A DNA stretch of 64,000 nt from positions 32,001 through 96,000 of the forward strand of contig JBBRLI010000009.1 of the NCBI GenBank assembly GCA_038231455.1. Reading direction: 5' to 3'. The position numbers and the translations under genes are program-made. The notes below the pieces were generated by a model. The model saw nothing but the letters and a program-made list of their open reading frames with translations, made no database searches and was not told the origin of the DNA. Below are positions 26,226-62,640 of the stretch, in pieces. Every line of letters begins with the position of its first letter. Within the stretch, counting starts at the first letter, position 1. The DNA is from Vulcanimicrobiales bacterium. Its GTDB lineage: Bacteria > Vulcanimicrobiota > Vulcanimicrobiia > Vulcanimicrobiales > Vulcanimicrobiaceae.

Positions 26226-27308
26226 TTGATTTCTGACGGTCCGATCGTTCAACTCGGCCAGGCCCAATCGAACTCGTACCGAGACGACGTGTTTTCCTCG
26301 CCCGCGCTCATCGAGATGGCAGGCCCGGAGAAGGCGGCGATTTTGATGATCACGCTGGGACTGGAAATCTCATCGACGATCTTCAAGTTCTTGCGGCAAG
26401 ACGAAGTCGAGCGTATCGTCCTCGAGATCGCGAAGATCTCGACGGTTCCGATCGAAAAGCGCGACGCGGTTATCACCGAGGCGTACCAACGCGCGATTGC
26501 TCTCAAGTACATTAACGAGGGCGGCATCGAGTATGCCAAGGAAATCTTAGAGCGTTCGTTTGGCGCCGGCCAAGCCGACGACATGACGAATCGGCTTTTC
26601 GCGGCGCTCAAACACGGCAATCCGCTCGAACTCGTCAAGAAGACCGAACCCGCGCAGTTGCTCGAGTTCATTCAAGACGAACACCCGCAGACGATCGCGC
26701 TCATCCTCGTGTACATGACCGCCGATCAAGCGGGCGCCGTCCTCTCCGCGCTCGAGCCCGAGTTGCAGTCCGAAGTCGCGATGCGCATTGCAATCTTGCA
26801 AAAGACCGCACCGGAGATTCTCGAACAGCTGGACGAACTGCTCGGACGTCGTCTCCTCGTCACCGGGTCGGATTTTACCAAGGCCGGCGGCGTCCAGTCG
26901 CTCGCGCAGGTCATGGGATTCGTCGACCGCGAGACCGAGCGCAACATCCTCGACGGACTCGCCAAACGCGATCCGGTCATCGCAAACGAAGTCAAGAACC
27001 TGCTCTTCGTGTTCGAAGATATCATCAATCTCGACGACCGCGCGATCCAGCGCGTGCTCAAAGAGATCGAGGGCAAAGATCTCGCGCTCGCGCTCAAAAC
27101 GGCGAACGACGATCTGCTCGCCCGCGTCTTCAAAAATATGTCGCAGCGCGCCGCCGGAACACTTAAAGAAGAAATCGAGATTCTCGGACCGACTCGCATG
27201 CGGGATGTCGGCAAATCGCAGCAAGCGATCGTCGATGTTATCCGTACGCTCGAAGAGAACGGCCAAATCGTCATCGCGCGCGGCGGCAAAGACGAGCGTT
27301 TAGTTTAA
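26226..27308 (+). CDS. fliG: Flagellar motor switch protein FliG
   Basis: EKAAILMITLG, EHPQTIALIL, LFVFEDI, NMSQRAA; start uncertain (TTG 26226 or ATG 26316). Confidence 0.95.
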   Translation: MISDGPIVQLGQAQSNSYRDDVFSSPALIEMAGPEKAAILMITLGLEISSTIFKFLRQDEVERIVLEIAKISTVPIEKRDAVITEAYQRAIALKYINEGGIEYAKEILERSFGAGQADDMTNRLFAALKHGNPLELVKKTEPAQLLEFIQDEHPQTIALILVYMTADQAGAVLSALEPELQSEVAMRIAILQKTAPEILEQLDELLGRRLLVTGSDFTKAGGVQSLAQVMGFVDRETERNILDGLAKRDPVIANEVKNLLFVFEDIINLDDRAIQRVLKEIEGKDLALALKTANDDLLARVFKNMSQRAAGTLKEEIEILGPTRMRDVGKSQQAIVDVIRTLEENGQIVIARGGKDERLV

Positions 27309-27309
27309 C

Positions 27310-28170
27310 ATGGGTCGAGTCGTCAAGGGCTCGCATACCTCGAGCGAGCGCTACACCGTTGGTATTCCGGAAATCGTATCGTCGAGCAACGGACATGTCG
27401 ACGACTTCGGGTCGATTGAAATCGACGATGTCGGCGATACGCTCGAATCATTTAACGCCGCTCCTCCCCCGGCCCAGCCGACGATCGACACGGAGGCCGT
27501 CCGCTCTGCAGCTGATGCGCTCATCGACGATGCGACGAAGCGCGCGGAGGGGTTGCTCGGCGATGCTCGCGATCGCGCACGGAAACTCGTTGAAGATTCC
27601 GCGACACGCGCAGCCGCGCTGATCGAACAGGCGCGGGCCGACGGCCGCAAAGACGGCTATCAAGTCGGCGCCGATGCGGCGAATCACGAGATGAGCGAGA
27701 TGCTCGAGACGATGCGCGGTCTCGTCGAGATGGCGGGCGTCGAACGTTACAAGATCATCAGCGCCGCCGAGCCCGAGATCGTGCGCCTGGCGATGGGAAT
27801 TGCGGAGCGCGTGCTGCACCAGCAGATTGCTCTGGACCGCGGCGTCGTCGTCGAGATGGCGAAGGCGGCGATCGCGCGTTTGGTCGATCGCGAATCGATC
27901 ACCGTGCGCGTGAATCCCGCCGACCTCGAAGGCATGCGCGGACATCGCGATGACGTCTTGGCGCTGGGCGACGTGAAGAGCATGCGCATCATCGAAGATC
28001 AGCGCGTCGACCGCGGCGGCGTCGTCGTCGAAACCGAAGCGGGCACGATCGATGCGAAGATTCAAACGCAGATTATTGAAGCAAAGCGCGTCCTGCACAT
28101 CGAGGACGACGTCGTGCTCACACCGGTCGATGAACCCGGACTCTACGGCAGCGCCGCGCGCGCGAGCTGA
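27310..28170 (+). CDS. fliH: Flagellar assembly protein FliH
   Basis: GxxxG-type repeats (ADGRKDGYQVG); ITVRVNPAD, RGGVVVETEAGTIDA; position between fliG and fliI. Confidence 0.9.
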   Translation: MGRVVKGSHTSSERYTVGIPEIVSSSNGHVDDFGSIEIDDVGDTLESFNAAPPPAQPTIDTEAVRSAADALIDDATKRAEGLLGDARDRARKLVEDSATRAAALIEQARADGRKDGYQVGADAANHEMSEMLETMRGLVEMAGVERYKIISAAEPEIVRLAMGIAERVLHQQIALDRGVVVEMAKAAIARLVDRESITVRVNPADLEGMRGHRDDVLALGDVKSMRIIEDQRVDRGGVVVETEAGTIDAKIQTQIIEAKRVLHIEDDVVLTPVDEPGLYGSAARAS

Positions 28171-28172
28171 TC

Positions 28173-29510
28173 GTGGCCGAACTGCTCGAAATCACCCCGC
28201 AAAAACCGTTTTCGGCAGAGTCCTATCTCGCCGAACTCAAGACGGTCGACCTTATCCGGCAAAACGGAAAGGTACGCCAAGTCATCGGCGTTGTGATCGA
28301 GTCGCTCGGTCCGAATATGTCGATCGGCGAGACGTGTTCGATCCTCTATCGCCGCAACACCGATCCGGTGCTGGCCGAAGTGGTCGGCTTCCGCGATAAC
28401 AAAGTGCTGATGATGCCGCTTGGAGATCTCGGCGGCATCGGCGCGGGCAGTGAAGTCGTCGCGCTCGGCAAGCCGCTCGAGATCGGTCTTTCCAACGGTC
28501 TGCTCGGACGCGTGCTCGACGGCATCGGCCGTCCGATTGACGGCCTCGGTCCGATCTTACAAGCCGAACGCGCCGAAGTCTCCGGCTCGCCGCCAAGCCC
28601 CCTCACCCGCCGCCGGATCACCGAACCGCTCAGCATGGGCGTGCGCGCGATCGATGGCTTGCTCTCGTGCGGCAAAGGTCAGCGCGTCGGCATTTTCTCC
28701 GGATCCGGTGTCGGCAAATCGACCGTGCTCGGCATGATCGCACGCAATACATCGGCCGATGTGAACGTGATTGCGCTCGTCGGCGAACGCGGCAAAGAAG
28801 TGCGCGACTTTATCGAACGCGATCTTGGTCCCGAGGGTCTGCGTCGTTCGGTCGTCGTCGTTGCGACAAGCGATCAGCCCGCACTCGTGCGCATCAAGGC
28901 CGCGTTTGTTGCGACGCGTATTGCCGAGTTTTTCCGAGAACAAGGCCTCGATGTCATGTTCATGATGGACAGCGTCACGCGCTTTGCGATGGCACAGCGC
29001 GAAGTTGGCCTTGCGATCGGCGAACCGACGACGACGCGCGGGTACACGCCTTCGGTCTTTGCGCTCCTGCCGAAACTCCTCGAACGCGCCGGCACCTCGG
29101 CAAATGGGACGATTACGGCACTCTATACCGTCCTCGTCGACGGCGACGATCTCAACGAGCCGGTTGCCGATGCCGTGCGATCGATTCTCGACGGCCATAT
29201 CGTGCTCTCGCGAGCGCTCGCCGCGGCGAACCAGTATCCCGCAATCGACGTGCTCGCGAGCGTCAGCCGCGTGATGCCGGACGTCGTGACCGACGCCCAT
29301 CTCAAATCCGCCTCGAACGTGCGCGATCTGATGGCGACCTATAAAGAAGCAGAAGACTTGGTCAACATCGGCGCATATGTCGCGGGCTCGAATCCCAAAG
29401 TCGATCTTGCAATCGGCCGCATCGATGCGATCCGGAGCTATTTGCGTCAAGGTATCTTCGAGCAATCGAGCTTCGATGATGCCGTCGCCGCACTTGCGAA
29501 GATCGGTTAA
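28173..29510 (+). CDS. fliI: Flagellar export ATPase FliI
   Basis: GSGVGKS, GERGKEV, DSVTRFAMAQRE, LDGHIVLSR. Confidence 0.96.
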   Translation: MAELLEITPQKPFSAESYLAELKTVDLIRQNGKVRQVIGVVIESLGPNMSIGETCSILYRRNTDPVLAEVVGFRDNKVLMMPLGDLGGIGAGSEVVALGKPLEIGLSNGLLGRVLDGIGRPIDGLGPILQAERAEVSGSPPSPLTRRRITEPLSMGVRAIDGLLSCGKGQRVGIFSGSGVGKSTVLGMIARNTSADVNVIALVGERGKEVRDFIERDLGPEGLRRSVVVVATSDQPALVRIKAAFVATRIAEFFREQGLDVMFMMDSVTRFAMAQREVGLAIGEPTTTRGYTPSVFALLPKLLERAGTSANGTITALYTVLVDGDDLNEPVADAVRSILDGHIVLSRALAAANQYPAIDVLASVSRVMPDVVTDAHLKSASNVRDLMATYKEAEDLVNIGAYVAGSNPKVDLAIGRIDAIRSYLRQGIFEQSSFDDAVAALAKIG

Positions 29511-29971
29511 TGAAACGCTTCCGCTTCGGTCTCGAACCGGTCCTCGACATGCGCACGCGCAACGCACAAGAACGCCAGCGCGTCTATGCCGAAGCACAGC
29601 GCGCCCACGCCCTGGCCGAAGCGCGTCTGCGAGCGCTCCAAGACGAATACGAAACGCTGCGCATGGATCTGGTCGAACATCACGGCACGCTCGACGTGGA
29701 AACGATGCGCACCACGTACGCGCATTTGGAATTTCTCGTTCGCGCGCAGCACGATCAGCGCGAGCGGATCGCCGCGTGCGCCGACGAGTGCCTCGCCGCC
29801 CAAAAATTACTGCTGCACGCATCGAAAGAAAAGAAAGTCATCGAAACGTTGAAAACCCGTCGGCGCGCCACGTACGACGCGGAACTTGCGCTCGTCGAAC
29901 AGCGTGAACTCGATGACGCCAACGCCCGCGCCTTCGGGCGCGTGAACCTGCAGCGAGGAGAATCCGCATGA
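29510..29971 (+). CDS. fliJ: Flagellar export protein FliJ
   Basis: MKRFRFGLEPVLDMR start, coiled coil, EQRELDD end; follows fliI. Confidence 0.9.
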   Translation: MKRFRFGLEPVLDMRTRNAQERQRVYAEAQRAHALAEARLRALQDEYETLRMDLVEHHGTLDVETMRTTYAHLEFLVRAQHDQRERIAACADECLAAQKLLLHASKEKKVIETLKTRRRATYDAELALVEQRELDDANARAFGRVNLQRGESA

Positions 29972-30594
29972 TCGTCACCCGTCGTCGCGAGCGAAAAGTC
30001 AATCTGCGGCCGCTCTTGTTGCCCATCATCGCGCTCCTCGCACTCGCCGGTGCGCTTGTCTGGCCGCCGTCGCATAAAGTCATCGTCGATGGCCCTCTTG
30101 CGCCGCTCTGGAGCAACATCGCGCAAATGGGCCGGCCGTTTAGCTTTGCCTACCAGAATCAAGTCATCGCCGACCGCAACCGGGAGATCAAGAGCCTCAA
30201 CGATCGTCTCGAGGGCCAGCGCAAAACGGTGGCGGAGCGCGACACGAAGATCGGCGCACTACAAGACACCTTGAAGCGACTCCAAAATGCCCCGCCGCCC
30301 GCGACTCCCGCGCCGTCAATTGCAAAAGCGGTCCCCGCAGGCGGAGCAGCGACCACCTCGACACTCGGCGGAGCTTCGGGCCAAACCGTGCCGCGGCCCG
30401 ACGACATCAGCCGCGTTGCTTCCTATTGGGGCGGAATGGAAGCCGACAAAGCCGCCGCAATCGTCCAGCGCCTCCCCGAAGACTATGTCGTGCGGATTTT
30501 CAGCAAAATGTCGCCCGACCAGGTCGGCGAGATCCTCGCAGCGCTTCCGGCAGCCGTCGCCGCCCGCCTCACCGCCGAACGCCAACTAAAATAA
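29968..30594 (+). CDS. YlxF/MotE-like flagellar protein
   Basis: N-terminal TM, coiled coil, C-terminal YWGGMEADKAAAI...MSPDQVGEILAALP; ylxF position. Confidence 0.8.
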   Translation: MIVTRRRERKVNLRPLLLPIIALLALAGALVWPPSHKVIVDGPLAPLWSNIAQMGRPFSFAYQNQVIADRNREIKSLNDRLEGQRKTVAERDTKIGALQDTLKRLQNAPPPATPAPSIAKAVPAGGAATTSTLGGASGQTVPRPDDISRVASYWGGMEADKAAAIVQRLPEDYVVRIFSKMSPDQVGEILAALPAAVAARLTAERQLK

Positions 30595-30641
30595 CGGCCG
30601 AATTGTCGTCGCTCGTCACTTGCTTGCCGCGGCCATCCGAC

Positions 30642-30669
30642 TAAGGTCTGGGGCCTTCAATGCCGAACA
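30642..30669 (+). promoter_or_regulatory. Putative sigma-28 promoter of fliK-flgD-flgE
   Basis: TAAG-N16-GCCGAACA. Confidence 0.6.
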
Positions 30670-30747
30670 ACCAGTTAGGCACATCGCACGATGGCCTTGT
30701 TTTGGCATCTTGCTTGTCCCTGATCCCAACACGAGAGGAGGTGAAAA

Positions 30748-32517
30748 ATGCAGTTAGTACCCCAACTTTTCTCGACCAGTGAGCCCCTTTTTAAGGGCCT
30801 CCAGACCCCAGCACCCCTCGTAAAAGCACCGATTCCCGGCCTCTTCCAAGCCCAACTGAATTCGAGCATCGCGAATCTCGCGCCGATCGTCTCCCAGTTG
30901 TTCGCGGGAAAGACCGCGGCCCTCGGGACGACCCAGCCGACCACCCCAACTCCGAGCGATCCGCTCGAAGCGAGGCTGGCCGCGCAGATCGCCGCGCGTT
31001 TGCAGAACGGTGAATCGCTCGAAGATATCGTCGCCTCGCTCTCAAAATCGCTTGCAACTTCGGTCGCAAACGGTCAGGGCGGAGCAGCCGATGCGCTCGG
31101 GCAACTCCAGAAGGTCTTCGCCGCAGCGCTGAGCCCACCGGGCAAAGCACCGCCAAGTGCGGACGCGAATGGAGCGCTAGCACTCGCTCACCGATTCCGG
31201 CAACTTGCCGAAATCGCCGCGACGATAGCACCACAAACGGGGCAGCCGAATCGATTCCTAGGACCAGACTTGGACGCGAAAGCGAAAGTCGACCTAGCCC
31301 CGGCAGAAACGAATCAACCGAGTGAGGCGCAAGCGCCTGGCTCTCTTGCCGTTTCCGTCGATTCGATCGTGAATGCCGCCGCCATTGCCCTCGGGGCAAT
31401 CCCCACTCCGACCGTGCCTCTCGTGACTCCGCCGACCACCTCGAACGGACCGTCCGCTTCGGCAGACGCCGCTCCGGTTGGAGCGCAAGTCGCATCGCGC
31501 GTACCGACAAAACCGCTCATCAGCGCACCTGTGCCTGGCGACGGCAAAAGCGGTGCAGCTTCCGCGGCAACCAGTCAACTCACGTCGGCCCCCGCGCCGA
31601 TCGTGAACCTCGAATCGCTCGCAGCTCCGCTCGCGGCGCTGTTTGCAAACGACGGTCGTACCGTCGCGAGCGGCGATCGAAAAATCGGCACGAACGGCGA
31701 TACGTCGCTCGGCCGTATCCTCACGCGTGCAATCAACGTCGCGCCGTCTATCAATTCCGCATCCGCGGAAGCGTCGACGACCGGCGGTGGCAACGCGCAA
31801 AGCGGGCTTCAATCGTTCCTCTCAGCGTTCGCTACGGCAGTTGCCAAAGCCGACGATACGACCGCGAACGGTTTGCCGACCGCCATCAGCCCCGCAACCG
31901 ACTTCCTCGCAACGCTCGATGCAGCCAATGCCGCGAGTGCCGCGACGAGTCAGCCGGTCGCAACGCCTCCGAGCATCGGCATCGGAAACTCGAACGGCCC
32001 CGCGCCGCTCGCCTTCGATGCATCGCTCTTTGCAGCGCCGCTGACGTACACTCCGCAGAACGCGGATCGGTACGCCGTGGTCGAGCAAGTGCTCAAAGGC
32101 CTCTCCATCCGTAACCTCGGTGGTGTCAGCAACTCCGAAGTACGCCTGCGCCTGGTCCCGGAGCACCTGGGTGATGTCAACGTCAAGCTGGTCATCACCA
32201 ATGGCAACGTCAACGCGACCTTGGTCGCCGCGAATGCCGACGTACGTGACACGCTCGTCGCAAACCAATCCCAACTCGCGCGATCGCTCGATAGCGCCGG
32301 CCTGAAGCTCACGGGCTTCAACGTCGATGTCTCAAACGGCGGGTTCGCGGGATTCCAACAACACCAGCAGCAACAGCCGGCCGCATCGCGCGGTTCGGTC
32401 GCCTCGTCCTTCGATGATTCGAAGACTGAGGACGACTTGGCGATCGCTGCGACCCCGAGTTTCGCACCGCCGTCCGTGACGAACGTGGCGCTCGGACACC
32501 TCAACGCTCTCGTTTAG
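30748..32517 (+). CDS. fliK: Flagellar hook-length control protein FliK
   Basis: Ala/Pro/Ser/Thr-rich body; VRLRLVPEHLGDVNVKL; AGGAGGTG SD; directly before flgD. Confidence 0.9.
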   Translation: MQLVPQLFSTSEPLFKGLQTPAPLVKAPIPGLFQAQLNSSIANLAPIVSQLFAGKTAALGTTQPTTPTPSDPLEARLAAQIAARLQNGESLEDIVASLSKSLATSVANGQGGAADALGQLQKVFAAALSPPGKAPPSADANGALALAHRFRQLAEIAATIAPQTGQPNRFLGPDLDAKAKVDLAPAETNQPSEAQAPGSLAVSVDSIVNAAAIALGAIPTPTVPLVTPPTTSNGPSASADAAPVGAQVASRVPTKPLISAPVPGDGKSGAASAATSQLTSAPAPIVNLESLAAPLAALFANDGRTVASGDRKIGTNGDTSLGRILTRAINVAPSINSASAEASTTGGGNAQSGLQSFLSAFATAVAKADDTTANGLPTAISPATDFLATLDAANAASAATSQPVATPPSIGIGNSNGPAPLAFDASLFAAPLTYTPQNADRYAVVEQVLKGLSIRNLGGVSNSEVRLRLVPEHLGDVNVKLVITNGNVNATLVAANADVRDTLVANQSQLARSLDSAGLKLTGFNVDVSNGGFAGFQQHQQQQPAASRGSVASSFDDSKTEDDLAIAATPSFAPPSVTNVALGHLNALV

Positions 32518-32529
32518 GAGCATCCATCC

Positions 32530-33012
32530 ATGGCTTCACCCATAACAGGCTCGAACGGCTTGCCGATCGACAACCTGATCAATCAAAGCACGCCGACGAG
32601 CAACGGCACGTCGACGCTGCAGAGTCAATTGGGCCAGGATGCGTTTTTGAAACTGCTTACAACGCAGCTCAAGAATCAGGATCCGCTCAAACCCCTCGAT
32701 GATACGCAGTCGATCGCGCAACTTGCACAGTTCCAAGCAACGCAAGCCACGACCGATCTGAAGAACTCATTCCAGACCTTCCAATCGAACTTCTCGGTCC
32801 TCCAGGCATCGACGCTGCTCGGCAAAACCGTTACCGTCTCAACCCCGAACGGCACCGGCAACACCTCGATCCTTACGGGAACCGTTGGAACGATTGCCGT
32901 CGTCGACGGCAAACCGCAGTTCACCCTCAACGATACCAACGGCAAGCCGTTTACGGACGCCAAAGGTACCGCGTACCAGTTCTCAACCGGGCAAATCGTC
33001 GGTATCAAGTAG
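32530..33012 (+). CDS. flgD: Hook capping protein FlgD
   Basis: DAFLKLLTTQLKNQDPLKP, AQLAQF. Confidence 0.95.
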   Translation: MASPITGSNGLPIDNLINQSTPTSNGTSTLQSQLGQDAFLKLLTTQLKNQDPLKPLDDTQSIAQLAQFQATQATTDLKNSFQTFQSNFSVLQASTLLGKTVTVSTPNGTGNTSILTGTVGTIAVVDGKPQFTLNDTNGKPFTDAKGTAYQFSTGQIVGIK

Positions 33013-33015
33013 CCG

Positions 33016-33414
33016 ATGGATCCCAAAATCACTGGACCCCAGATCCCGCCGTCGACCGTTTCGGTCGCACGTCCGGTCGGCGTTCCATTCACCGTTCCGC
33101 CTTCCGGCGGTACGTCGTTCCGCGACGTCCTTCGGCAGTCAGAACCGCTCCAAGGCGAACCGCTCAAATTCAGCGCGCACGCCATGCAGCGACTCCAATC
33201 GCGCAACATCACCCTCACGCCGCAAGACGTGGAGAAGATGAACTCGATGGCCGACAAAGCAGCGGCCAAAGGTGCGAAGCAGAGCCTCTTCATGATGGGC
33301 GATGTCGGCATGGTGGTCTCGATCAAAAATCGAGTCGTCATCACGGCCGTCGATCAAGATTCGATGAAAGAAAACGTCTTCACGAATATTGATTCCGCTG
33401 CGATCATTCGATAA
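33016..33414 (+). CDS. TIGR02530 family flagellar operon protein
   Basis: LKFSAHAMQRLQSRNI, KGAKQSL, NRVVITA, NVFTNIDSA. Confidence 0.9.
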   Translation: MDPKITGPQIPPSTVSVARPVGVPFTVPPSGGTSFRDVLRQSEPLQGEPLKFSAHAMQRLQSRNITLTPQDVEKMNSMADKAAAKGAKQSLFMMGDVGMVVSIKNRVVITAVDQDSMKENVFTNIDSAAIIR

Positions 33415-33432
33415 CACTTCAACACAAACGCA

Positions 33433-33494
33433 TGAGAGTGGACCTTGTTGCGAGGGGCTCTCACCTGTGGCGCCGACTGATGGACGCGTCGCGG
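33433..33494 (+). promoter_or_regulatory. Candidate two-hairpin cis-regulatory RNA in the flgE leader
   Basis: TGAGAG/CTCTCA plus CCTTG/CGAGG stem with internal GGA; CTGTGGCGC/GCGTCGCGG stem with loop CGACTGATGGAC. Confidence 0.5.
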
Positions 33495-33522
33495 AAATGT
33501 TCAGCAACGAAAGGGTCAACAA

Positions 33523-35010
33523 ATGCCTTTTGATTCCTTGTTTATTGGGGTCACCGGTCTTGAGTCATACCAGACACAGATCGACGTCATCTCGAATAAC
33601 ATTGCCAATGTCGGTACGACCGGCTTCAAGGGTCAGCGCGTCAACTTCCAGGACCTGTTGTATCAGGCACAGTCGTTCTCGTCCGCTCCGACGCAAACGC
33701 GCGGTGGCGTCAACGGCCAAGATCTCGGTCTCGGCGTCAAAGTCGGCACGATCGACACGCAGTTCCAACAGGGCGGCCTGAACACCACGGGCGTCAACAC
33801 GGACCTCGCGATCAACGGCGACGGCTTCTTCGTGCTCCGCGACAAAAACGGCGGCGGCATCCCGACGTACACGCGCAACGGCGCGTTCTCGCTCAACCAA
33901 GACGGCCTGCTCTACGATCCCAGCTCCGGTCTTGCGGTGCAGGGCTATCCGGCGAGTTCCACCGGTATCGTCACGCAGACTGGCGTTCCGCAGTCGCTTC
34001 AAATTCCGCTCGGCCTCAAGTCGGCTGCGGTCGGCACGGGCTTCGGCACGAAGAGCGGCCCGACGGGCGACAAAGTGTTCGACGTGAATTTCGGCGGCAA
34101 CCTCGATCAAACGCAATACATCATTGCGGCATCGAACGCGGGCGTAGGCGCGACGACCACCACCATCTCGACGACGCTTTACGATTCGCTCGGCAACGCG
34201 CATCTCGTGAACGTCGCCTTTATCCCGGCCGTCACGGGCTCGACAACGACCTGGCAAAATCTCCCGGCTGCGGTTACGAACTCCGCTGGCGTCGCCGTCA
34301 CGGCTGCGACCGAATGGAAGTATACGATTACTCCGACCGATGGTTCGACCATCACGCAGAATAATGGTTACGTGTTCTTCGATGCCAACGGCCAGTTCAT
34401 CAATACGGCGAAAGGCGACACGTTTCCAGCGACTCCTGGTTCGGGTCTTGCCGCTAGTGCTAATCATCGCACGAACGCTAACCCGTCCACCGCCGATGGT
34501 AACCAGATCACGGTTGGCAGTTGGCAGTTTGGAAACAACGCCACCGCTATCACGACCGTCGGCGGTCCGATCGGTGTCGACTTCTCGAACCTGACATCTC
34601 TCTCGGGCGGATCGAATCCGCCAAACGTGCTCTCGCAAAACGGATTCCCGCAGGGCACACTCTCGAACATCAACATCGGCCAAGACGGCACGATTCAGGG
34701 CGCGTTCACAAACGGACAAACGCAAACGCTCGGACGCGTTGCGGTTGCAACGTTCCAAAACGAACAGGGTCTGCATCGTGAAGGCTCGAGCCAGTTCTCC
34801 GCAACGGCAAACTCGGGTCTCGCACAAATCGGAACCGCAGCAAGCGGCCGCTTCGGTTCGATCGTCTCGGGCTCGCTCGAACAGTCGAACGTCTCGATCG
34901 CCGATGAGTTCACCAAACTGATTCTCGCGCAGCGCTCCTTTGAAGCGAACTCGCGCAGCATTACAACGGCAGACTCCGATCTCCAAACGGTTATCGCGCT
35001 CAAGCGATAA
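33523..35010 (+). CDS. flgE: Flagellar hook protein FlgE
   Basis: VISNNIANVGTTGFK, DLAINGDGFF, LYDSLG, GSLEQSNV, AQRSFEANSR. Confidence 0.95.
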   Translation: MPFDSLFIGVTGLESYQTQIDVISNNIANVGTTGFKGQRVNFQDLLYQAQSFSSAPTQTRGGVNGQDLGLGVKVGTIDTQFQQGGLNTTGVNTDLAINGDGFFVLRDKNGGGIPTYTRNGAFSLNQDGLLYDPSSGLAVQGYPASSTGIVTQTGVPQSLQIPLGLKSAAVGTGFGTKSGPTGDKVFDVNFGGNLDQTQYIIAASNAGVGATTTTISTTLYDSLGNAHLVNVAFIPAVTGSTTTWQNLPAAVTNSAGVAVTAATEWKYTITPTDGSTITQNNGYVFFDANGQFINTAKGDTFPATPGSGLAASANHRTNANPSTADGNQITVGSWQFGNNATAITTVGGPIGVDFSNLTSLSGGSNPPNVLSQNGFPQGTLSNINIGQDGTIQGAFTNGQTQTLGRVAVATFQNEQGLHREGSSQFSATANSGLAQIGTAASGRFGSIVSGSLEQSNVSIADEFTKLILAQRSFEANSRSITTADSDLQTVIALKR

Positions 35011-55074: not shown

Positions 55075-55317
55075 GTGACCAGTTCCATTCCCGGCTCCGA
55101 AAACGGCACGCCGCCCAAACCTGACAAACCGTCCGTCGCCCTCCAGCGCACGTTCGTGTGGCTCGGGATCGCGAGCGCCTCGGCTGCGGTGACCTATCTT
55201 GTTATTCGCGCGTCAATGCGACGCGCGCCGGTCGACCCGACGAGCGAGCGCATTCAATCGCTCATCGACGAAGCCAACCGCCTGTTGCGGACGCTCGACG
55301 ATAAAAAGCACGGTTAG
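55075..55317 (+). CDS. Small single-TM hypothetical protein, 80 aa
   Basis: GTG with GGGA SD; TM FVWLGIASASAAVTYLVI followed by an amphipathic helix. Confidence 0.65.
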   Translation: MTSSIPGSENGTPPKPDKPSVALQRTFVWLGIASASAAVTYLVIRASMRRAPVDPTSERIQSLIDEANRLLRTLDDKKHG

Positions 55318-56776
55318 CGGCGGCCTCGCCGCCGGAACCGTCGCGCGCGTCACCTTCACCGACCTCCTCGCTAACGGCCAAGCCGTCGGGCGTATTGACG
55401 GCGTCGTCGTCTTCGTATGGGGACCGCTTCCGGGGGAGACCGCGACCGTGCGCGTTACCCTCGTCAAGGCGAAGTACGCCGTTGCGGATGTCGTGTCGCG
55501 CGAGGATGATTCGGCGCTACGGGCGGATCCGTTCTGTCCGGTCTTTGGCGAGTGCGGCGGCTGTCAGGTGCAGCATCTGGCCTATCCGGCGCAGCTTGCG
55601 TGGAAAGAGCAGATCGTTCGAAGCGCGCTTCAGCGTATCGGCGGCATCGATGGCGTCAAGGTCGCGCATCCAATCGGCATGACCGATCCGCGTGCCTATC
55701 GCAATAAGATGGCGCTCGTGGTCGATAACAGCGGCGCAACGCCCGTGCTTGGCTTTTACCAGGCACGTTCGCACGACATCGTGCCAATCGCCGAATGTCC
55801 CGTTGTGTTGCCGCAGCTCAACGAGGGCATCAAAGCCTTACGCGAAGTTGCTGTTGCTCCGGCGACGGCGGCAGCTCTCAAGCCTGTCAAACATGCGATT
55901 ATGCGTGCGGGCGCCGCCTCGAAACAAGCCGTTCTTTCGTTGACCACCGAAAAAGCAGCGTTTCAAATCGCCGCCGTTGCGCCTGCGATTGCTGGGCGAA
56001 TGGCTGGCCTTGTCGGTGTTTCCAATAGCTTCGAACCGCGCAACGCAAATGCCGTGATGGGTCGGAAGATCAATCACGTTTGGGGCCGCAAAGAGATGGA
56101 AGAATCCATCGAAGACGTGCGCTTCCGCGTTTCCTCATCATCTTTCTTTCAAGTGAACAGCGAGATGGTTGGGAAGATCTTTCGCTTCATGGCGCCCGGG
56201 CTCAAAGAGCCGCGAAAGATCGTGGATCTTTACTGCGGTGCGGGTACCTTTGCGATTTATTTTGCCGCGCATGGGGCCGATGTCGTCGGGATTGAAGAAA
56301 ACGAAGCGGCGGTGCGTGAAGCGCGTGCGAATGCCGAACTCAATCGGGTCGCCGGTCGCACGCGCTTTATCGCCGGACGCGTTGAAGGCGCCGTTGCGAA
56401 CGCCGATGGTTTGCAGGCGCTACGCGATGCCGAGATCGTGTTTCTCGATCCGCCACGGAAGGGCAGCGATTCGCTGACCCTCGATGCGCTGGCGGAAGCG
56501 AACGTTCCGAACATTTGGTATCTCTCGTGCAATCCGGCGACGCTTGCTCGCGATTTGCAGCGGCTGATCGGGCATGGCTATGAAGTTGGGCTGGTGCAAC
56601 CGTTCGATATGTTCCCGCAGACCGGGCATGTTGAGACGCTTGTTACGCTTTCGAGGGCTGGGTTGCCGGGTGTTGTCATGCCTCCTCGTGAGAAGGCTGA
56701 GTGGGATGATTTGATTCCGGAGTGGCCTTCGCAAGGGCGCGGGCCTGCTGATGGGATGGATTTCGACTCCGAATAA
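55310..56776 (+). CDS. rlmD: 23S rRNA m5U1939 methyltransferase RlmD (start uncertain)
   Basis: TRAM domain, CPVFGECGGCQ, SFFQVN, DLYCGAG, LDPPRKG, YLSCNP, DMFPQTGHVE. Confidence 0.92.
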   Translation, partial: TVSGGLAAGTVARVTFTDLLANGQAVGRIDGVVVFVWGPLPGETATVRVTLVKAKYAVADVVSREDDSALRADPFCPVFGECGGCQVQHLAYPAQLAWKEQIVRSALQRIGGIDGVKVAHPIGMTDPRAYRNKMALVVDNSGATPVLGFYQARSHDIVPIAECPVVLPQLNEGIKALREVAVAPATAAALKPVKHAIMRAGAASKQAVLSLTTEKAAFQIAAVAPAIAGRMAGLVGVSNSFEPRNANAVMGRKINHVWGRKEMEESIEDVRFRVSSSSFFQVNSEMVGKIFRFMAPGLKEPRKIVDLYCGAGTFAIYFAAHGADVVGIEENEAAVREARANAELNRVAGRTRFIAGRVEGAVANADGLQALRDAEIVFLDPPRKGSDSLTLDALAEANVPNIWYLSCNPATLARDLQRLIGHGYEVGLVQPFDMFPQTGHVETLVTLSRAGLPGVVMPPREKAEWDDLIPEWPSQGRGPADGMDFDSE

Positions 56777-56792
56777 TTTCGGGTGGTGGCTT

Positions 56793-56938
56793 GGTCGCCG
56801 GGGGCTTCATGGTGCCCGTGGGGACGCCCGCATTTGCCCATCCATGGGCAAATGCTACTCCCGAACTTTTCGCTCCCGGCATCCTGCCTCCGCGAAAAGC
56901 TTCGAGGCCCCACGGTCACCATGAAGCCCCCGGCGACC
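56793..56938. repeat. 146-bp element with 31-bp terminal inverted repeats and two internal hairpins (MITE/REP-like or structured RNA)
   Basis: 56793-56823 is the reverse complement of 56908-56938 with one mismatch; inner stems 56830-56855 and 56862-56904. Confidence 0.8.
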
Positions 56939-57042
56939 GTAGGCACGATCGTCGCAAACCACTTCTTCTTAGCCGTTTTGGGTGGTGGCACGATATAAGT
57001 CGGGGCGGGTTGAGGGGGCTTTGCCTCGAACATTTAGGCGCT

Positions 57043-57339
57043 ATGGCTTCGGAATCGATTGATGTTCGGTATGTTGCGAAGTTGGCGCGGTTGGCGCTAA
57101 CGGATGATGAGGTTGTGCAGTATGGTGCGCAACTTGGGGACTTGCTCGGGCATGTCGGCGCGCTTTCGCGTCTTGATACGGCTAGCGTTGCTGCGACTGC
57201 TCAGGTTGTTGAGTCGCGGAATGTTGCTCGCGAGGATGTTGTTGGGCCGTGTCTGGATCGGGCCGTTGTGCTTGCCGGCGCTCCTCAAGCGCATGGCGCG
57301 TTTTTTCGCGTTCCTCAGATTATTGCGAGTGAGGAGTAG
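57043..57339 (+). CDS. gatC: Asp/Glu-tRNA amidotransferase subunit C
   Basis: VRYVAKLARL, REDVV, FFRVPQII. Confidence 0.93.
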   Translation: MASESIDVRYVAKLARLALTDDEVVQYGAQLGDLLGHVGALSRLDTASVAATAQVVESRNVAREDVVGPCLDRAVVLAGAPQAHGAFFRVPQIIASEE

Positions 57340-57342
57340 GGC

Positions 57343-58818
57343 GTGATCGATTCGACTGCTGTTTCGATTGCTGCTGCTGTTTCTTCGCGTAAGACGTCGG
57401 CTCGCGAGACGATTGATGCTCTGTATCCCTATGTTGAGTCCAGTGATAAGACCGTTGGGTCGTATCTTTCGCTTACGCATGAGATTGCTCGGGCGCATGC
57501 CGATCGTGTTGATGCGCGTGTGAAAGCTGGCGAGTCGCTTCCGCTTGCTGGTGTGCCGATTGCGGTTAAAGACAATATGTGTCTTACCGGTACGGTTACG
57601 ACGTGTGGGTCAAAAATTCTCGAGCATTGGACTTCGCCGTATACCGGGACTGCCGTTGCGCGGTTGCTCGATGCTGGGGCTATTCCGGTTGGTAAGACCA
57701 ACATGGATGAGTTTGCTATGGGGAGTTCTTGCGAGAATTCTGCGCTTGGGGTTACGCGTAATCCGTACGATCTGGGGCGGGTTCCCGGGGGGAGTTCTGG
57801 TGGCAGTGCGGCTGCTGTTGCTGCTCGTCAGGCGGCGCTTTCGCTTGGTAGCGATACCGGTGGGTCGATTCGTGAGCCCGCTGCGTTTTGTAATGTGGTT
57901 GGATTTAAACCGACGTATGGGCGCGTTTCTCGCTACGGGTTGATTGCGTTTGCTTCGAGTTTGGATCAGATCGGGCCGTTTGCTCGTACCGTTGAAGATG
58001 CGGCGCTTTGTTATGATGTGATGGGTGGCTTCGATCCGATGGATGCTACGAGCGTCGATCGGCCGCTTGAATCGACGGCTACGCACTTGCGGACCGATCT
58101 TCGCGGCGTTCGGGTCGGTATCGTGAAAGAGTTTGCGACGGGCGAACTTGGGGCCCAGATCGATGCCGTTTACAAAAAGGCGTACGCCGATCTTGAGGCG
58201 CTTGGGGCGACGCTCGTTGAAGTGGCGCTGCCGACTGCTGAGTTTGGCATCGCGACGTACTATCTTATTGCACCCGCAGAATGTTCGGCGAACCTTGCGC
58301 GTTTTGATGGCGTCCGGTATGGATTGCGTGTTGATGGGATCAACGTTCAGGAGATGTACGAGAAGACGCGGGCTGCCGGATTTGGGGCAGAGGTCAAGCG
58401 CCGTATCCTTATTGGGACGTATGCGCTCTCGTCGGGTTATTACGATGCGTATTATGTGAAAGCGCAGAAGGCGCGTACGCTTATTGCTTCGGATTTTGCG
58501 AAGGCGTTTGAATCGTGCGATGTGATCGCCTCGCCTGCGGCGTCGACTCCGGCGTTTGCGTTTAACGCGAAGTCCGATCCGTACGCGATGTACCTGATGG
58601 ATTACTACACCATTCCCGGGTCGCTTGCGGGCTTGCCATCGCTTTCGGTTCCTTGTGGATGGGTTACACCGGAGGGCGGGTCGCGGCCGATGCCGATGGG
58701 CTTGCAGCTTTCCACTCCGCTTTTTGCTGAGCGGTCGCTGCTTGGGATCGCGCACGCTTATGAGCGCGCGACGCTTCATGCCGATGTGCACGCTTTGCCG
58801 GAGATTGCGTCTGTATGA
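57343..58818 (+). CDS. gatA: Amidotransferase subunit A
   Basis: GVPIAVKDN, GKTNMDEFAMGSS, GGSSGGS, GSDTGGSIR. Confidence 0.97.
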   Translation: MIDSTAVSIAAAVSSRKTSARETIDALYPYVESSDKTVGSYLSLTHEIARAHADRVDARVKAGESLPLAGVPIAVKDNMCLTGTVTTCGSKILEHWTSPYTGTAVARLLDAGAIPVGKTNMDEFAMGSSCENSALGVTRNPYDLGRVPGGSSGGSAAAVAARQAALSLGSDTGGSIREPAAFCNVVGFKPTYGRVSRYGLIAFASSLDQIGPFARTVEDAALCYDVMGGFDPMDATSVDRPLESTATHLRTDLRGVRVGIVKEFATGELGAQIDAVYKKAYADLEALGATLVEVALPTAEFGIATYYLIAPAECSANLARFDGVRYGLRVDGINVQEMYEKTRAAGFGAEVKRRILIGTYALSSGYYDAYYVKAQKARTLIASDFAKAFESCDVIASPAASTPAFAFNAKSDPYAMYLMDYYTIPGSLAGLPSLSVPCGWVTPEGGSRPMPMGLQLSTPLFAERSLLGIAHAYERATLHADVHALPEIASV

Positions 58819-60299
58819 CCGCTATTGCTGAAGTTACCCCAGACGTGCTTGCGAAGTACGAGCTCGTTATTGGGATTGAATGTCATGTCGAACTCAAGAC
58901 GGCGAGTAAGATGTTTTGCGCTTGTCCCAATGAGTTTGGTGGCGAGCCGAATACCAAAGTGTGTCCGGTTTGTCTTGCGATGCCCGGTGCGCTTCCCGTT
59001 CCGAATAAGGTTGCTATCCAGCATATGATTCGGGCGGGGCTTGCGTTTGAGGCGGAGATTCCGCTGTTTTCGAAGTTCGATCGGAAGAACTACTTTTATC
59101 CCGACATGCCCAAGAACTATCAAATCACGCAGTTCGATATGCCGCTCACGCAGGGTGGGGTCGTTGAGTTTTGGCTCGATGATGGGACGCGTGGGTCGTG
59201 TCGGTTGACGCGTATTCATCTTGAGGAAGATACCGGGAAATCGTCGCACGCCGGGTCTGGGGATGGTCGTATCGCCGGCTCTTCGTATTCGCTGATCGAC
59301 TTTAATCGTGCTGGCGTGCCGCTCATGGAGTGTGTTGGCGAACCCGATTTGCGTTCGGCTGATGAAGCTGTTGCGTTTTTGGAATCGCTCAAGCGGACGT
59401 TCGTTCAACTTGGCGTCTCGGATGTGAAGATGGAAGAAGGTTCGCTCCGCTGCGATGCTAACGTTTCGGTTCGCCTCAAAGGCGCAACGGAATACGGAAC
59501 CAAGGCCGAAATCAAGAACATGAACTCGTTTCGGTCCGTTCATCGGGCGATCGAGTCGGAGTTTGCGCGGCAAGTTGGCGTGATCGAGCGTGGTGGGCGC
59601 GTCGTTCAGGAGACGCGCGGTTGGGATGAGACGACCGGTACGTCCGTTTCTATGCGCAGCAAAGAGCAGGCGCATGATTACCGCTATTTCCCGGAACCGG
59701 ATCTCGTTCCGGTCGAACTTGAGGCCGCGCATATCGCGGCTCTCAAAGCGGCGCTTCCGCCATCGCCCGCCGTCCGGCATCGCCGCTACGTTGAGTCGTA
59801 CGGGTTTACCGTTGCGCAGGCGACGCAACTTGTCGATAACGTCCGGCTAGCGGAATACTTCGATCGTACGGTTGCGCTGACGAATGCTCCGCAGGCGGTG
59901 ATGAACTTCGTGCTCGGCGATCTCTCGCGGCTTGCCAATGAGACCGAGACGCACGTTGCCGATGCGAAGATTACGCCCGATGCCCTCGCCGAGTTGATCG
60001 TCATGCTCGAGGCGAAAACGATCAATTCCAAGATCGCAAAAGATGTGATCGTGAAGCTTTGGAACGAAGGCGGCTCGGCGAAGGCCATCGTCGAGAAAGA
60101 CGGTCTCGCGCAGGTTTCCGATCCAAGCGCCGTCGCGGGATTCGTCGATGAAGTGCTCGCGGCCAATGCGAAGAGTGTTGAGGATTTCAAAGCCGGTAAA
60201 GAAAATGCGCTGAAATTTCTCGTCGGTGCGGTGATGAAAGTCAGTCGCGGCAAAGCCAACCCCGTCCTCGTGGAGCAAGCCCTCCGCGACCGCATGTAA
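58815..60299 (+). CDS. gatB: Amidotransferase subunit B
   Basis: IGIECHVEL, FDRKNYFYPD, HLEED, YRYFPEPD. Confidence 0.97.
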   Translation: MTAIAEVTPDVLAKYELVIGIECHVELKTASKMFCACPNEFGGEPNTKVCPVCLAMPGALPVPNKVAIQHMIRAGLAFEAEIPLFSKFDRKNYFYPDMPKNYQITQFDMPLTQGGVVEFWLDDGTRGSCRLTRIHLEEDTGKSSHAGSGDGRIAGSSYSLIDFNRAGVPLMECVGEPDLRSADEAVAFLESLKRTFVQLGVSDVKMEEGSLRCDANVSVRLKGATEYGTKAEIKNMNSFRSVHRAIESEFARQVGVIERGGRVVQETRGWDETTGTSVSMRSKEQAHDYRYFPEPDLVPVELEAAHIAALKAALPPSPAVRHRRYVESYGFTVAQATQLVDNVRLAEYFDRTVALTNAPQAVMNFVLGDLSRLANETETHVADAKITPDALAELIVMLEAKTINSKIAKDVIVKLWNEGGSAKAIVEKDGLAQVSDPSAVAGFVDEVLAANAKSVEDFKAGKENALKFLVGAVMKVSRGKANPVLVEQALRDRM

Positions 60300-60300
60300 C

Positions 60301-62640
60301 GTGCTGGTCGACGAACGCAGCCTCGATGTCCTGGACTTCGCGCGCGTTCGCGAGGCACTCGCCGGGCAGACCCATAGCCCCGGCGCATTCGCCCGTTCGC
60401 TTGCGCTCGTCCCGACCGAAGACTTTGATGACGTTCGGCGCCTGATTGCCGAGACGGGCGAGATGCGTACGCTCCGTGCGGGCGAGGGCATTTCGATCGC
60501 GCAGGTCGATGACGTCGCATCGGCCGTCGCGACGGCGGCCCGTGGCGTCTCAATCGCCGCCGCCGAACTGCGTTCGATTGGGAACGCGCTTGCTGCCGCA
60601 AACGCGACGGTTCGACGGATCCGCGAAGCCGACGGCGTGCCGCTTCTCCTCGAGCGCTGCGAGCCGTTTCTTGCCTTGCCGCAACTCTCGGCTGCCATCA
60701 CCAATGCGATCGGCGAGCGAGGCGAAGTGCTCGACCGCGCCTCGCCCGCGCTCGGGCGCATTCGACGTGGCATTGCGACGGCGCAGAACGAGGCGCGCGA
60801 CCGCGCCTCGGCAATCGTACGCTCGGCAAAATACGCAAACGCGATTCAAGATCAGGTCGTCACGGTGCGTGATGGACGCTACGTGGTGCCGATCAAGGCC
60901 GAGTTCAGCGGTGAGTTTCCCGGAATCGTTCACGATGCATCGGCCAGCGGTCAAACGCTCTTCGTCGAGCCGCTCGAAGCGCTGGAAACCAACAACCGGC
61001 TGCGATCGCTTCGTATGCAAGAAGAGCATGAGGTCGCGCGTATTCTTACGGATCTCTCGACCGCGGTTGGGAACGAAGCGACGACGATCGAGATCGACCT
61101 TGCAATCTACGAGACGCTCGACCTTGCGCTTGCGCGCGCAGAGATTGCGATCCGCATGAACGCGATCGCGCCCGCGCTCGTCGATGAGGCAACGATCGCC
61201 GTTGCGAATGGGCGTCACCCGCTGCTCGGTGAGCGGGCCGTGCCGCAGTCGCTGACGCTCGATGCGAACACGCAGATCATCCTCATCAGCGGTCCGAACA
61301 TGGGCGGAAAGACCGTCGCACTCAAGATGCTCGGGCTCTTCGTCACGATGGCGTACTGCGGACTGCATCTGCCGGCGGAAGAAGTGACGCTCGGGCACTT
61401 CACGCGCATTTACACCGACATCGGTGACGAACAATCGATTGCCCTCAATGCATCCACGTTCTCCGCGCACTTACGACGCCTCGCCGAGATCGTCGCTGGC
61501 GCCGATGCGCGCAGTTTGATCCTGGTCGATGAAATCGGGAGCGGTACGGAGCCGACCGCGGGCGCGGCGCTTGCGGTTGCGGTTTTGGAGCGTTTCCTGA
61601 CCGCCGGTGCGCGCACGATTGCAACGACGCATGCCACCGAACTCAAACTCTTCGGTGCCGAGCACGAACGTGTCCAAAACGCCAGCGTCCGCTTCAATCC
61701 CGACACGTATGCTCCGACCTATCAGCTCGATCTTGGTTCTCCCGGACAGTCGCTGGCCTTTGCGCTTGCGCGGACGATGAAGCTCGACGCGGCCGTTGTT
61801 GCGCGTGCCGAGACGCTGCTCTCGCAAGCCGAACGTGACTACGACCGCGCGCTTGCGGAGCTTGCCGAAGAGCGCACGCGCACGGTGGAAGCGCGCGAGG
61901 CGCTCGACCGCGACCGGGTTCATTTGCGCACGCTTGAAGACAATGCGCGGCGACGTGCCGAGGTGCTGGAACGCGAACGTCGCGAACTTGCGCGCGCCGC
62001 GGAGACAAAACTCGCTGAGGCCTTGCGGACATTTTCGGCCGAACTCGAGCGCCGTTCGGGCGGACGTGGACGCGGCCGCGTGACGAGCGGCCAAAGCGAA
62101 TTGCTTTCTAGGACAATCGGTGACATGCACCGCGACCTCGGCCTCGATCGCATCCCCGCTGTCGACAAGCGCGATCCAAATGCCGTCGCCCCGATACAGA
62201 TCGGCGACCGCGTTTTCGTTGCCTCGCTCGAACAAGAAGGCACGGTCTCTGCGATCGACGGCGATTCGGCCGTCGTGTCGATCGGCTCCATGCGTATGAC
62301 GGTCGAACGCGACGATTTACGGCGCCGCGGCGGTCCGCCGCGCGAACGCAAGTCGAGCGCCAGTACCGGTGCTCCCACGATGTCGGCGGCCGCAAACGCG
62401 CGCACCGAGATCGACGTGCGCGGGAAGCGGTTCGTCGATGCCGAGCCGGTCGTCGATTCGTGGATCGATGAGGCGATGCTGCTGGGCTTCTCGCCGCTGC
62501 GGCTCATCCACGGCAAAGGCACCGGGCTGCTCGGCCGCGGACTCCAGAGCTATTTGAAAGATCACCCCCACGTTACGGGCGTTCGCTACGGCAACGAGGA
62601 CGAGGGAGGGAGCGGCGTGACCATCTTTGAACTGCGCTAG
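60301..62640 (+). CDS. mutS2: Endonuclease MutS2
   Basis: SGQTLFVEP, GPNMGGKT, DIGDEQSI, C-terminal Smr domain IHGKGTG. Confidence 0.95.
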   Translation: MLVDERSLDVLDFARVREALAGQTHSPGAFARSLALVPTEDFDDVRRLIAETGEMRTLRAGEGISIAQVDDVASAVATAARGVSIAAAELRSIGNALAAANATVRRIREADGVPLLLERCEPFLALPQLSAAITNAIGERGEVLDRASPALGRIRRGIATAQNEARDRASAIVRSAKYANAIQDQVVTVRDGRYVVPIKAEFSGEFPGIVHDASASGQTLFVEPLEALETNNRLRSLRMQEEHEVARILTDLSTAVGNEATTIEIDLAIYETLDLALARAEIAIRMNAIAPALVDEATIAVANGRHPLLGERAVPQSLTLDANTQIILISGPNMGGKTVALKMLGLFVTMAYCGLHLPAEEVTLGHFTRIYTDIGDEQSIALNASTFSAHLRRLAEIVAGADARSLILVDEIGSGTEPTAGAALAVAVLERFLTAGARTIATTHATELKLFGAEHERVQNASVRFNPDTYAPTYQLDLGSPGQSLAFALARTMKLDAAVVARAETLLSQAERDYDRALAELAEERTRTVEAREALDRDRVHLRTLEDNARRRAEVLERERRELARAAETKLAEALRTFSAELERRSGGRGRGRVTSGQSELLSRTIGDMHRDLGLDRIPAVDKRDPNAVAPIQIGDRVFVASLEQEGTVSAIDGDSAVVSIGSMRMTVERDDLRRRGGPPRERKSSASTGAPTMSAAANARTEIDVRGKRFVDAEPVVDSWIDEAMLLGFSPLRLIHGKGTGLLGRGLQSYLKDHPHVTGVRYGNEDEGGSGVTIFELR

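Follow-up and report, generated by a model that had tools for sequence, protein, structure and literature searches.

Local strand asymmetry of base composition is known from several systems. Vertebrate mitochondrial DNA carries gradients of strand asymmetry around the hairpin of its light-strand origin, and in eukaryotes transcription-associated asymmetry and GC-skewed R-loop zones are found downstream of promoters. In engineered mutators, a deaminase tethered to a polymerase or helicase makes strand-specific transitions downstream of a defined DNA signal. We know of no compositional zone flanking repetitive extragenic palindromes (REPs) or miniature inverted-repeat transposable elements (MITEs). 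Here we describe a structured palindromic element, flanked by such a zone, in the genome of an uncultured Vulcanimicrobiales bacterium from soil. The element lies between rlmD and gatC in a stretch of 64,000 nucleotides (referred to as the window; C9:32001-96000, contig JBBRLI010000009.1, of a 3.71-Mb genome in 106 contigs), and the strand that bears it is enriched in G+T on its 3' side, at this copy and at the nine others in the genome.

As in the mitochondrial gradient, one strand gains T and G at weakly constrained sites to a degree that varies with distance from a hairpin, with a sharp step at the hairpin and one-sided decay. Unlike that gradient, the pattern belongs to a dispersed chromosomal repeat with 10 copies and zones of 1-2.5 kilobases (kb), and there is no replication skew; to our knowledge, strand-displacement replication has not been described for this organism. 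A deamination gradient under single-strand exposure would fit the composition and the gradient; however, transversion-type shifts are seen in addition, and the rate of change is not raised. The eukaryotic R-loop zones share with this pattern a G+T excess on the non-template strand, a fixed start, a fade over ~1 kb and G-runs just downstream. Here, however, highly expressed genes are unskewed and half of the zones run antisense through coding genes. One copy, in the dnaA-dnaN spacer beside sites that resemble DnaA boxes, has bipolar skew like the jump in skew at a bacterial origin, whereas the remaining nine are unipolar and lie elsewhere in the genome, and the skew is local rather than replichore-wide. 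Tethered-deaminase mutators likewise make strand-specific, transition-type changes within an interval downstream of a DNA signal, but they raise the mutation rate, which is not raised here, and no deaminase or dedicated polymerase is linked to the element.

The element resembles REPs, REPINs and MITEs in being a dispersed intergenic palindrome, present in 1 to at least 40 copies per genome and with a burst of near-identical copies in one genus, but it is much larger (~165 nt, with a three-way junction). Assignment to the REPs or REPINs with a RAYT, or to palindromes derived from IS200/IS605, was rejected, as the Y1 (HUH) transposase (PF01797) was found in 0 of 5 genomes searched, among them two with 23 and at least 40 copies of the element; a control search with PF01797 was positive in 6 of 14 known genomes. 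In the titles and opening lines of abstracts returned by a literature search, nothing was found on the element or on repeat-anchored local skew in bacteria. We regard the zones as polar strand asymmetry of a known sort borne by a new repeat family, strong as a pattern, with a mechanism that we infer.

The G+T-rich zone and its anchoring at ten copies

At the gatC copy the G+T-enriched zone spans 56550..59600 on the + strand, with a long tail on the 3' side of the element and only a short shoulder on the 5' side, a shape that matches the mean profile of the ten copies. GC skew over this interval is ~+0.2, T over A is ~+0.3, and local GC is.55-.58 compared with.61. G+T peaks at.640 in the 1-kb interval 57001-58000, a deviation larger than that of any other 1-kb interval in the genome (14,471 overlapping intervals scanned; mean.499, standard deviation (sd).0265).

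The gene upstream of the element, named rlmD in the initial annotation (a label that is unconfirmed), is an open reading frame (ORF) at 55199..56776 on the + strand that is skewed only in its last ~75 codons (56549-56776). The share of T among its third-position pyrimidines, T3/(T3+C3), is.71-.80 in its last two 50-codon windows and.14-.53 in the earlier ones. The most skewed gene here is gatC (57043-57339, + strand, 98 codons), with a third-position G+T of.85 (T.45, C.11, A.04, G.40), in agreement with the hand count of the initial annotation (T44/G39/C11/A4). The third-position G+T of gatA (57343..58818, + strand, 491 codons; T.39, C.16, A.05, G.40) is.79, which ranks top among 3008 ORFs of at least 120 amino acids (mean.472, sd.049). 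In gatB (58815..60299, + strand; T.27, C.28, A.09, G.36) it is.63 overall, and the skew fades within the gene at ~59,400-59,600. In 50-codon windows, T3/(T3+C3) is.72-.84 over the first 250 codons of gatA and.50-.69 over the remainder of gatA and the first half of gatB, drops to.38-.50 from ~59,400 and is.11-.44 in the gene after gatB; for comparison, recA has T3.11 and C3.46. The boundaries of the zone therefore sit within genes, and the earlier impression that the skew fades inside rlmD and gatB rather than at gene edges was correct, as was the remark that the proteins stay normal, since codon positions 1 and 2 of the zone genes are unshifted relative to 20 orthologues.

At 10 of 10 copies, the 250 bases immediately 3' of the element have an element-strand G+T of at least.54. 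In 250-base bins the mean 3' profile runs.628,.606,.589,.566,.560,.536,.543,.526,.534,.530 and.514, and G+T is back to.50 by ~2.75 kb; 5' of the element the ten-copy mean is ~.50, rising to.57 in the last 250 bases before it. Relative to a baseline of.500 from random oriented sites (sd of a mean of ten,.0083), mean G+T is.597 in the first 1 kb downstream (z 11.7),.542 at 1-2 kb downstream (z 5.0) and.517 in the first 1 kb upstream (z 2.0), and the highest of 100,000 random means of ten did not exceed.537. The initial annotation had raised the question of whether other skew peaks coincide with copies of the element. They do: by our reading of the listings, seven of the genome's ten strongest skew peaks fall in zones downstream of copies.

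Two general causes were considered and set aside. Hairpins as such do not produce the skew, as 224 other hairpins with arms of at least 12 bp (eight near contig ends being excluded) average.507/.504 in their flanks; four of the 224 reach.58, and three of these four neighbour element copies. Replication skew was also rejected, since GC skew in 10-kb steps stays within ~+/-0.08 and forms no domains, and the orientation of the element is unlinked to the background skew.

The polarity of the zones follows the element and not the gene. Five copies have downstream genes that are co-oriented with them, namely gatCAB, dnaX, thiC, a beta-lactamase-family gene and a CrtC-like gene, with third-position G+T of.79,.69,.64,.65 and.71, respectively, the highest values in the genome. 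At four copies the genes point at the element and encode GcvPB, an Ogt-like protein (whose gene is followed by one for an extracytoplasmic function (ECF) sigma factor), a Vgb-lyase-family protein and DnaA (identified with Pfam). The coding strands of these genes are A+C-rich, with a third-position G+T of.32 for GcvPB,.27 for the Ogt-like gene,.29 for the Vgb-lyase-like gene and.44 for DnaA; the value of.27 is the lowest of the 3008 ORFs, and three of the four genes are among the ten lowest. Within gcvPB it drops towards the element (.43,.55,.45,.35,.30,.28,.15 and.13 in 60-codon bins). Whether polarity follows element orientation had also been asked in the initial annotation, and it does so even against gene orientation. 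Because the sign is set by the orientation of the element, translational codon selection and the genes' own transcription are excluded as causes.

The dnaA-dnaN copy lies antisense in the spacer with two one-mismatch DnaA boxes and an AT-rich stretch alongside (L033:6440-7080, 8523-8691; C4), and four further DnaA-box-like sites are found upstream of dnaA. On its 5' side, dnaN (.71) and recF (.58) have G+T-rich coding strands, so that the skew is bipolar, which fits a putative event of the unwinding or initiation type.

Structure, distribution and descent of the element

The element at gatC (56779..56949, + strand) consists of an outer stem (56793-56938) around two inner hairpins, which together form the three-way junction, and has a conserved core at 56816-56915. 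The folding energy of the 266-nt rlmD-gatC spacer is -146.4 kcal/mol (z -7.7), and the gatC-side element scores 115.9 bits with a covariance model. BLAST, the covariance model and nhmmer agree that the genome contains exactly 10 copies and no fragments. Among these ten, the long outer stem varies in sequence yet keeps its complementarity, with compensatory changes in 39 of 58 pairs; both inner-hairpin loops bear a CATCC motif, and the feet of the element are conserved. In a set of 65 copies (59 of them distinct) drawn from this genome and others, pairing holds in 95.9% of cells and double changes occur in 35 of 35 core pairs, a result matched by 0 of 500 shuffles. Orthologous copies in the sister species also fold stably, with 22 double compensatory changes in 6 pairs. 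In two copies of the sister genome (L111, L108) the outer stems contain long homopolymers of G or C, which may be genuine decay or noise from assembly and which inflate the count of "lost" pairs in the comparison of sister copies.

Watson-Crick pairs make up 1949 of 2047 cells, and G.T (14) is no commoner than A.C (18), so the constraint on pairing is equally strict on both strands. Such symmetry favours a DNA palindrome, as a hairpin or cruciform, over an RNA. A generic structured non-coding RNA was considered and rejected, as covariation is strong but G.U is not favoured over A.C. No Rfam family was found, the only matches being two sub-threshold ones to hairpin-like microRNA precursors (32.8 bits against a threshold of 80 and 24.3 against 90). 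Between the element and the start of gatC is a G/T-rich tail (56950..57042, + strand) with a short T/C-rich motif and G-runs common to some copies; 7- and 8-mers at +10 to +55 past the element are shared by 3 to 5 of the 10 copies. At the gatC copy, G+T is.64 over the first 250 bases past the element.

The covariance model matches the element in 74 of 101 genomes of the family, representing 59 of 78 genera, with 1 to at least 40 copies each. Exact core matches among named records come from metagenome-assembled genomes of Eremiobacterota and from one record labelled Limnocylindrales. The near-identical copies of one other genus lose their mutual similarity at the foot of the hairpin. Some of the tallies given here include unpublished genomes (G009, G030, G032, G034, G041, G054, G064, G108 and G112), none of which is decisive alone.

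Several features of individual copies were also observed. Three of the ten (C10_77, C4_164 and C11_36, located at L032:7174-7304, L034:7027-7158 and L038:6994-7125) share an identical mini-hairpin of ~32 nt, placed alike within the loop of the second inner hairpin. It is missing from the sister-species orthologues of two of the three, which suggests either nested insertion at a specific site or, since the two species separated, gene conversion among copies. In several genera, copies occur as facing pairs (+ then -) 170-900 bases apart, e.g., L090:7001-7101(+)/7271-7372(-) and L076:1501-1599(+)/2461-2559(-), and three copies are clustered in L072. By eye, the sequence that separates thiC from its associated copy (L035 ~6865-7000) resembles a thiamine pyrophosphate (TPP) riboswitch, for which we take it to be a candidate only; if this holds, the element stands upstream of a riboswitch.

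The zones are restricted to the lineage that carries the element at these loci. Third-position G+T of gatA is.79 here,.75 in the only other genome of the genus and.45-.55 in 28 further relatives with unskewed gatA, in all 28 of which the element is absent within 1.5 kb of the gene. For gcvPB it is.32 here (down to.12 in the last 120 codons),.39 in the sister species and.44-.55 in 25 element-free relatives. A GatA tree separates three families, with this genome and its sister nested within their own. The C-terminal part of the upstream gene lies directly 5' of gatC in 28 of 29 relatives, and the rlmD-gatC spacer measures ~6-143 bases in relatives compared with 266 here. The unskewed orthologues, the synteny and the GatA tree thus indicate that these genes were inherited vertically and acquired the zone where they stand, on the branch that gained the element.

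Comparison with the sister species, which is ~82-91% identical in DNA, shows that the skew weakens where the element has been lost or broken. At the gatC locus the sister has lost the hairpin and retained the feet. In this zone, 81 sites have T here and C in the sister and 34 have the reverse, compared with ~1.1-1.3 to 1 in the flanks; purines show no comparable difference (27 vs 26). At the gcvPB locus of the sister, an insertion of ~900 bases cuts the element after the first inner hairpin, and the last two 60-codon bins of the gene are.27 and.22, compared with.15 and.13 here. Downstream of a copy found only in the sister, the first 750 bases give.57,.59 and.62, compared with.50,.54 and.49 in this genome, where 1.3 kb of other DNA replaces the element and the farther part is still skewed. 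Two copies present here are missing from the sister as blocks, along with 1-2 kb of downstream DNA, which leaves room for some co-mobility. The sister has nine copies, and the seven that were profiled downstream are all skewed (7/7;.56-.65 in the first bin).

Outside the genus the effect is weaker and shorter. Among 28 other genomes, 27 of which were testable, G+T at the best copy per genome is.523 downstream and.483 upstream, with the downstream value higher in 23 of 27 (Wilcoxon p.0008). Twenty copies from four other genera average.539 downstream and.486 upstream, with the downstream value higher in 19 of 20; the downstream bins are.579,.535,.523 and.519 and then reach baseline. These copies represent 10 of 15, 4 of 13, 3 of 8 and 3 of 9 of the reported matches, close converging pairs having been skipped, and the other-genus statistics as a whole come from samples in which kin are not independent. 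Upstream values tend to fall slightly short of.50, with.476-.489 at -1000 to -500 in the four-genus sample, a hint that the DNA 5' of the element may be weakly skewed in the opposite sense.

Kind of change, mechanism and alternatives

The family majority is C at 247 third positions of gatCAB, of which 136 are T, 80 are C, 28 are G and 3 are A in this genome. In two control relatives, T occupies 21 of 259 and 32 of 260 majority-C sites, and as these relatives belong to the majority themselves they look conservative. The ratio of pyrimidines to purines at third positions is unchanged. At fourfold sites, T replaces a majority G at 26 of 115 sites (5-7 of ~120 in the controls) and G replaces a majority C at 28 of 118 (13-19 in the controls), and GGC is swapped for GGG, not GGT. 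The neighbouring base makes only a mild difference at C-to-T sites. Since sites are near saturation at this divergence, these figures are contrasts of composition and not a mutation spectrum. The shift is not limited to the C->T and A->G changes on one strand proposed in the initial annotation; transversion-type shifts (T for G, G for C) accompany them.

Synonymous third-position differences between the two species have a median of.297 in zone genes (n=11) and.315 in others (n=63; Mann-Whitney p.15). According to our rough flux estimate, a nine-fold rise in C>T alone would increase the flux ~2.7-fold, a fixation bias would reduce it to ~0.7-fold and a shift between strands would keep it near 1. 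These values argue against hypermutation and for a bias in direction, with strand-biased repair or protection, or selection, being favoured. The idea of a repeat-anchored mutational process, put forward in the initial annotation, thus survives as regards anchoring and polarity, and the unraised synonymous divergence argues against a simple rise in mutation rate.

We propose, with a probability of roughly.55, that a directional DNA transaction has its fixed start at the element and affects the two strands unequally over ~1 to 2.5 kb on the 3' side. That a native transaction of this kind, loaded or started at the element, gives a heritable strand-specific substitution bias within ~2 kb 3' of it (a "polar mutational field") is a more tentative proposal, for which the odds seem to us slightly worse than even; if it is right, a dispersed repeat could rewrite the synonymous sites of core genes in either orientation. 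At weakly constrained sites on the element strand, C would change to T and A to G, with some T arising from G and some G from C, and the complementary changes would be suppressed within the zone. The element strand would grow G+T-rich over evolutionary time whether it is sense or antisense to the genes. The asymmetry would stem from the element strand recurrently being the exposed or the "kept" strand.

The geometry, with a start at the element, a run in the 3' direction and a fade over 1-2.5 kb, fits three possible routes. An R-loop or transcript could leave the element, with an RNA of the same sense as the element strand; nicking at the element could prime strand displacement or resynthesis; or strand-biased mismatch correction could proceed from the element and consistently keep the element strand. 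By all three, deamination-type changes would be fixed on the element strand and erased on the other. As overall divergence is unraised, a redistribution between strands through biased repair or protection is favoured over extra damage.

Other starting events were considered and rejected. Fork stalling at the hairpin would, by our reasoning, leave a gap 5' of the hairpin on either template, which is the wrong side or sign, and a fixed Okazaki priming site could do no more than double a baseline asymmetry of replication, which this genome lacks. Among the three repair families compared, no loss was found that would explain the stronger zones of this genus: uracil-DNA glycosylase (UDG), MutS domain V and RNase H are present in 31 of 31 relatives, including this genome and its sister. 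A shared promoter was not found: a sigma-70 scan gave 0 sites at the gatC copy, and there is no common motif upstream of the 10 copies. The 3' foot of the element is like the -24 half of a sigma-54 promoter, but by eye a GC at the spacing of the -12 half is present in only 3 of 10 copies, and this candidate was set aside.

Several observations weigh against the proposal of a directional transaction. Synonymous divergence is not raised in the zones, and sequence identity there equals that of the flanks; a bias in fixation or repair, or selection, fits these data at least as well. The context-dependent codon shifts and the differences of the G-to-T and C-to-G type are not predicted by simple deamination. 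A closed genome carries at least 40 near-identical copies, and the 20 that were profiled average only.547 in the first 250-base bin and ~.51 beyond it, two or three strongly skewed copies being exceptions, which implies that the element alone gives no strong zone quickly. The coding strand of dnaN, 5' of one copy, is G+T-rich with the opposite polarity. There are only three sister-species comparisons, and kin are not independent. Single-strandedness, nicking, transcription or repair at the element are events that we infer.

Selection on RNA is an unlikely explanation in our estimate, although part of the evidence agrees with it. It holds that a transcript from the element is kept G+U-rich and C-poor at synonymous sites over 1-2.5 kb, as mRNA or antisense, with a possible benefit in escaping Rho-dependent termination or in favouring a structure or a binding protein. 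As a balance of mutation and selection predicts, zone genes have diverged no more than others, and if anything slightly less; codon choice depends on context (e.g., GGG over GGT), the skew tracks the strand of the element and not the reading frame, and the proteins are unchanged. However, such selection would have to act at hundreds of synonymous sites in converging housekeeping genes for the sake of an antisense RNA, and the zone stops within gatB though the mRNA must go on. The copies have no common promoter-like motif upstream, and the pairs of the element show no tolerance of G.U and hence are not RNA-like. An insertion preference for G+T-rich DNA, or a skewed flank carried along as cargo, is improbable. 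The two copies that are missing from the sister as blocks are consistent with it, as are the young copies of another genus that are already at.547 in the first 250 bases. At gatCAB and gcvPB, however, co-mobility is largely refuted: these genes are vertically inherited and syntenic, with unskewed orthologues in 28 and 25 relatives, which places the origin of the skew on the branch of the insertion. Further points against it are a gradient that is anchored at the element and weaker after its loss and, in the genus with at least 40 copies, a similarity between copies that stops at the hairpin foot.

Ordinary transcription-associated asymmetry, or the codon bias of highly expressed genes, would fit the five zones over co-oriented genes, in which the G+T-rich strand is the coding strand. 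It is very improbable, as the genes for EF-Tu, GroEL, RpoB, RpoC, DnaK, AtpD, RecA and FtsZ are C-ending, with a third-position G+T of.36-.43 that lies below the genome mean, and the four zones over opposite genes show the opposite codon shift; moreover, the zone fades in gatB and the orthologues of relatives are unskewed. An origin in a compositionally different donor, by horizontal transfer or recombination, is barely conceivable, and so is an error of assembly. The locally lower GC would agree with a donor, but A3 falls as T3 rises, which is not expected from a lower-GC one, and the pattern is common to ten loci. The GatA tree and the synteny in 28 of 29 relatives support vertical descent, and a horizontally acquired island is contradicted by placement, synteny and within-gene boundaries. 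The initial annotation, which found that transfer fits poorly, is upheld on this point, and the chimeric assembly it had named as an alternative is opposed by the same zone in an independently assembled genome of the genus.

Neighbouring features and significance

The gene that overlaps the end of gatB (60301-62640 in the window) is unskewed. It has a match to MutS domain V at 61279-61827 and probably encodes a MutS2-type protein; a MutS domain V gene also follows gatB in many relatives. Elsewhere in the window, an A+C-rich stretch at 29,000-34,500 was considered and found to be unrelated, reflecting the amino acid composition of Ala/Thr/Pro/Gln-rich flagellar proteins. It falls in a flagellar cluster (27,300-35,000) that encodes a FliI-like ATPase, a hook-length-control-like protein and a hook protein and has a + strand G+T of.43-.46. 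In the sister genome, a copy of the element lies at the end of a contig near the position orthologous to 30.5 kb, where this genome lacks one. Another of the top skew intervals of the genome, C1:315,300-317,400 (L036; + strand G+T.38), contains a repetitive, low-complexity ORF of 630 amino acids that sits 1-3 kb on the 5' side of an element copy; its skew is probably compositional.

In the skew zones genome-wide, e.g., at 57610-58791(-) in the window, stop codons are scarce on the A+C-rich strand, which has long spurious ORFs, such as one of 393 amino acids opposite gatA and one of 350 opposite gatB, so gene calling based on length is unreliable there. The zones could also pass for horizontal transfer or for expression-linked codon bias, and caution is warranted on both counts.

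Local composition and codon usage in bacteria are usually explained by the level of expression, the strand of replication or a foreign origin. In this genome the most extreme codon usage, in both directions, is predicted by a dispersed repeat, and the genes concerned include the essential gatCAB, dnaX and gcvPB. Should a polar process of repair or exposure be the cause, the element would give access, through a defined sequence, to a DNA transaction whose evolutionary footprint can be read, in a phylum of which hardly any members have been cultured.

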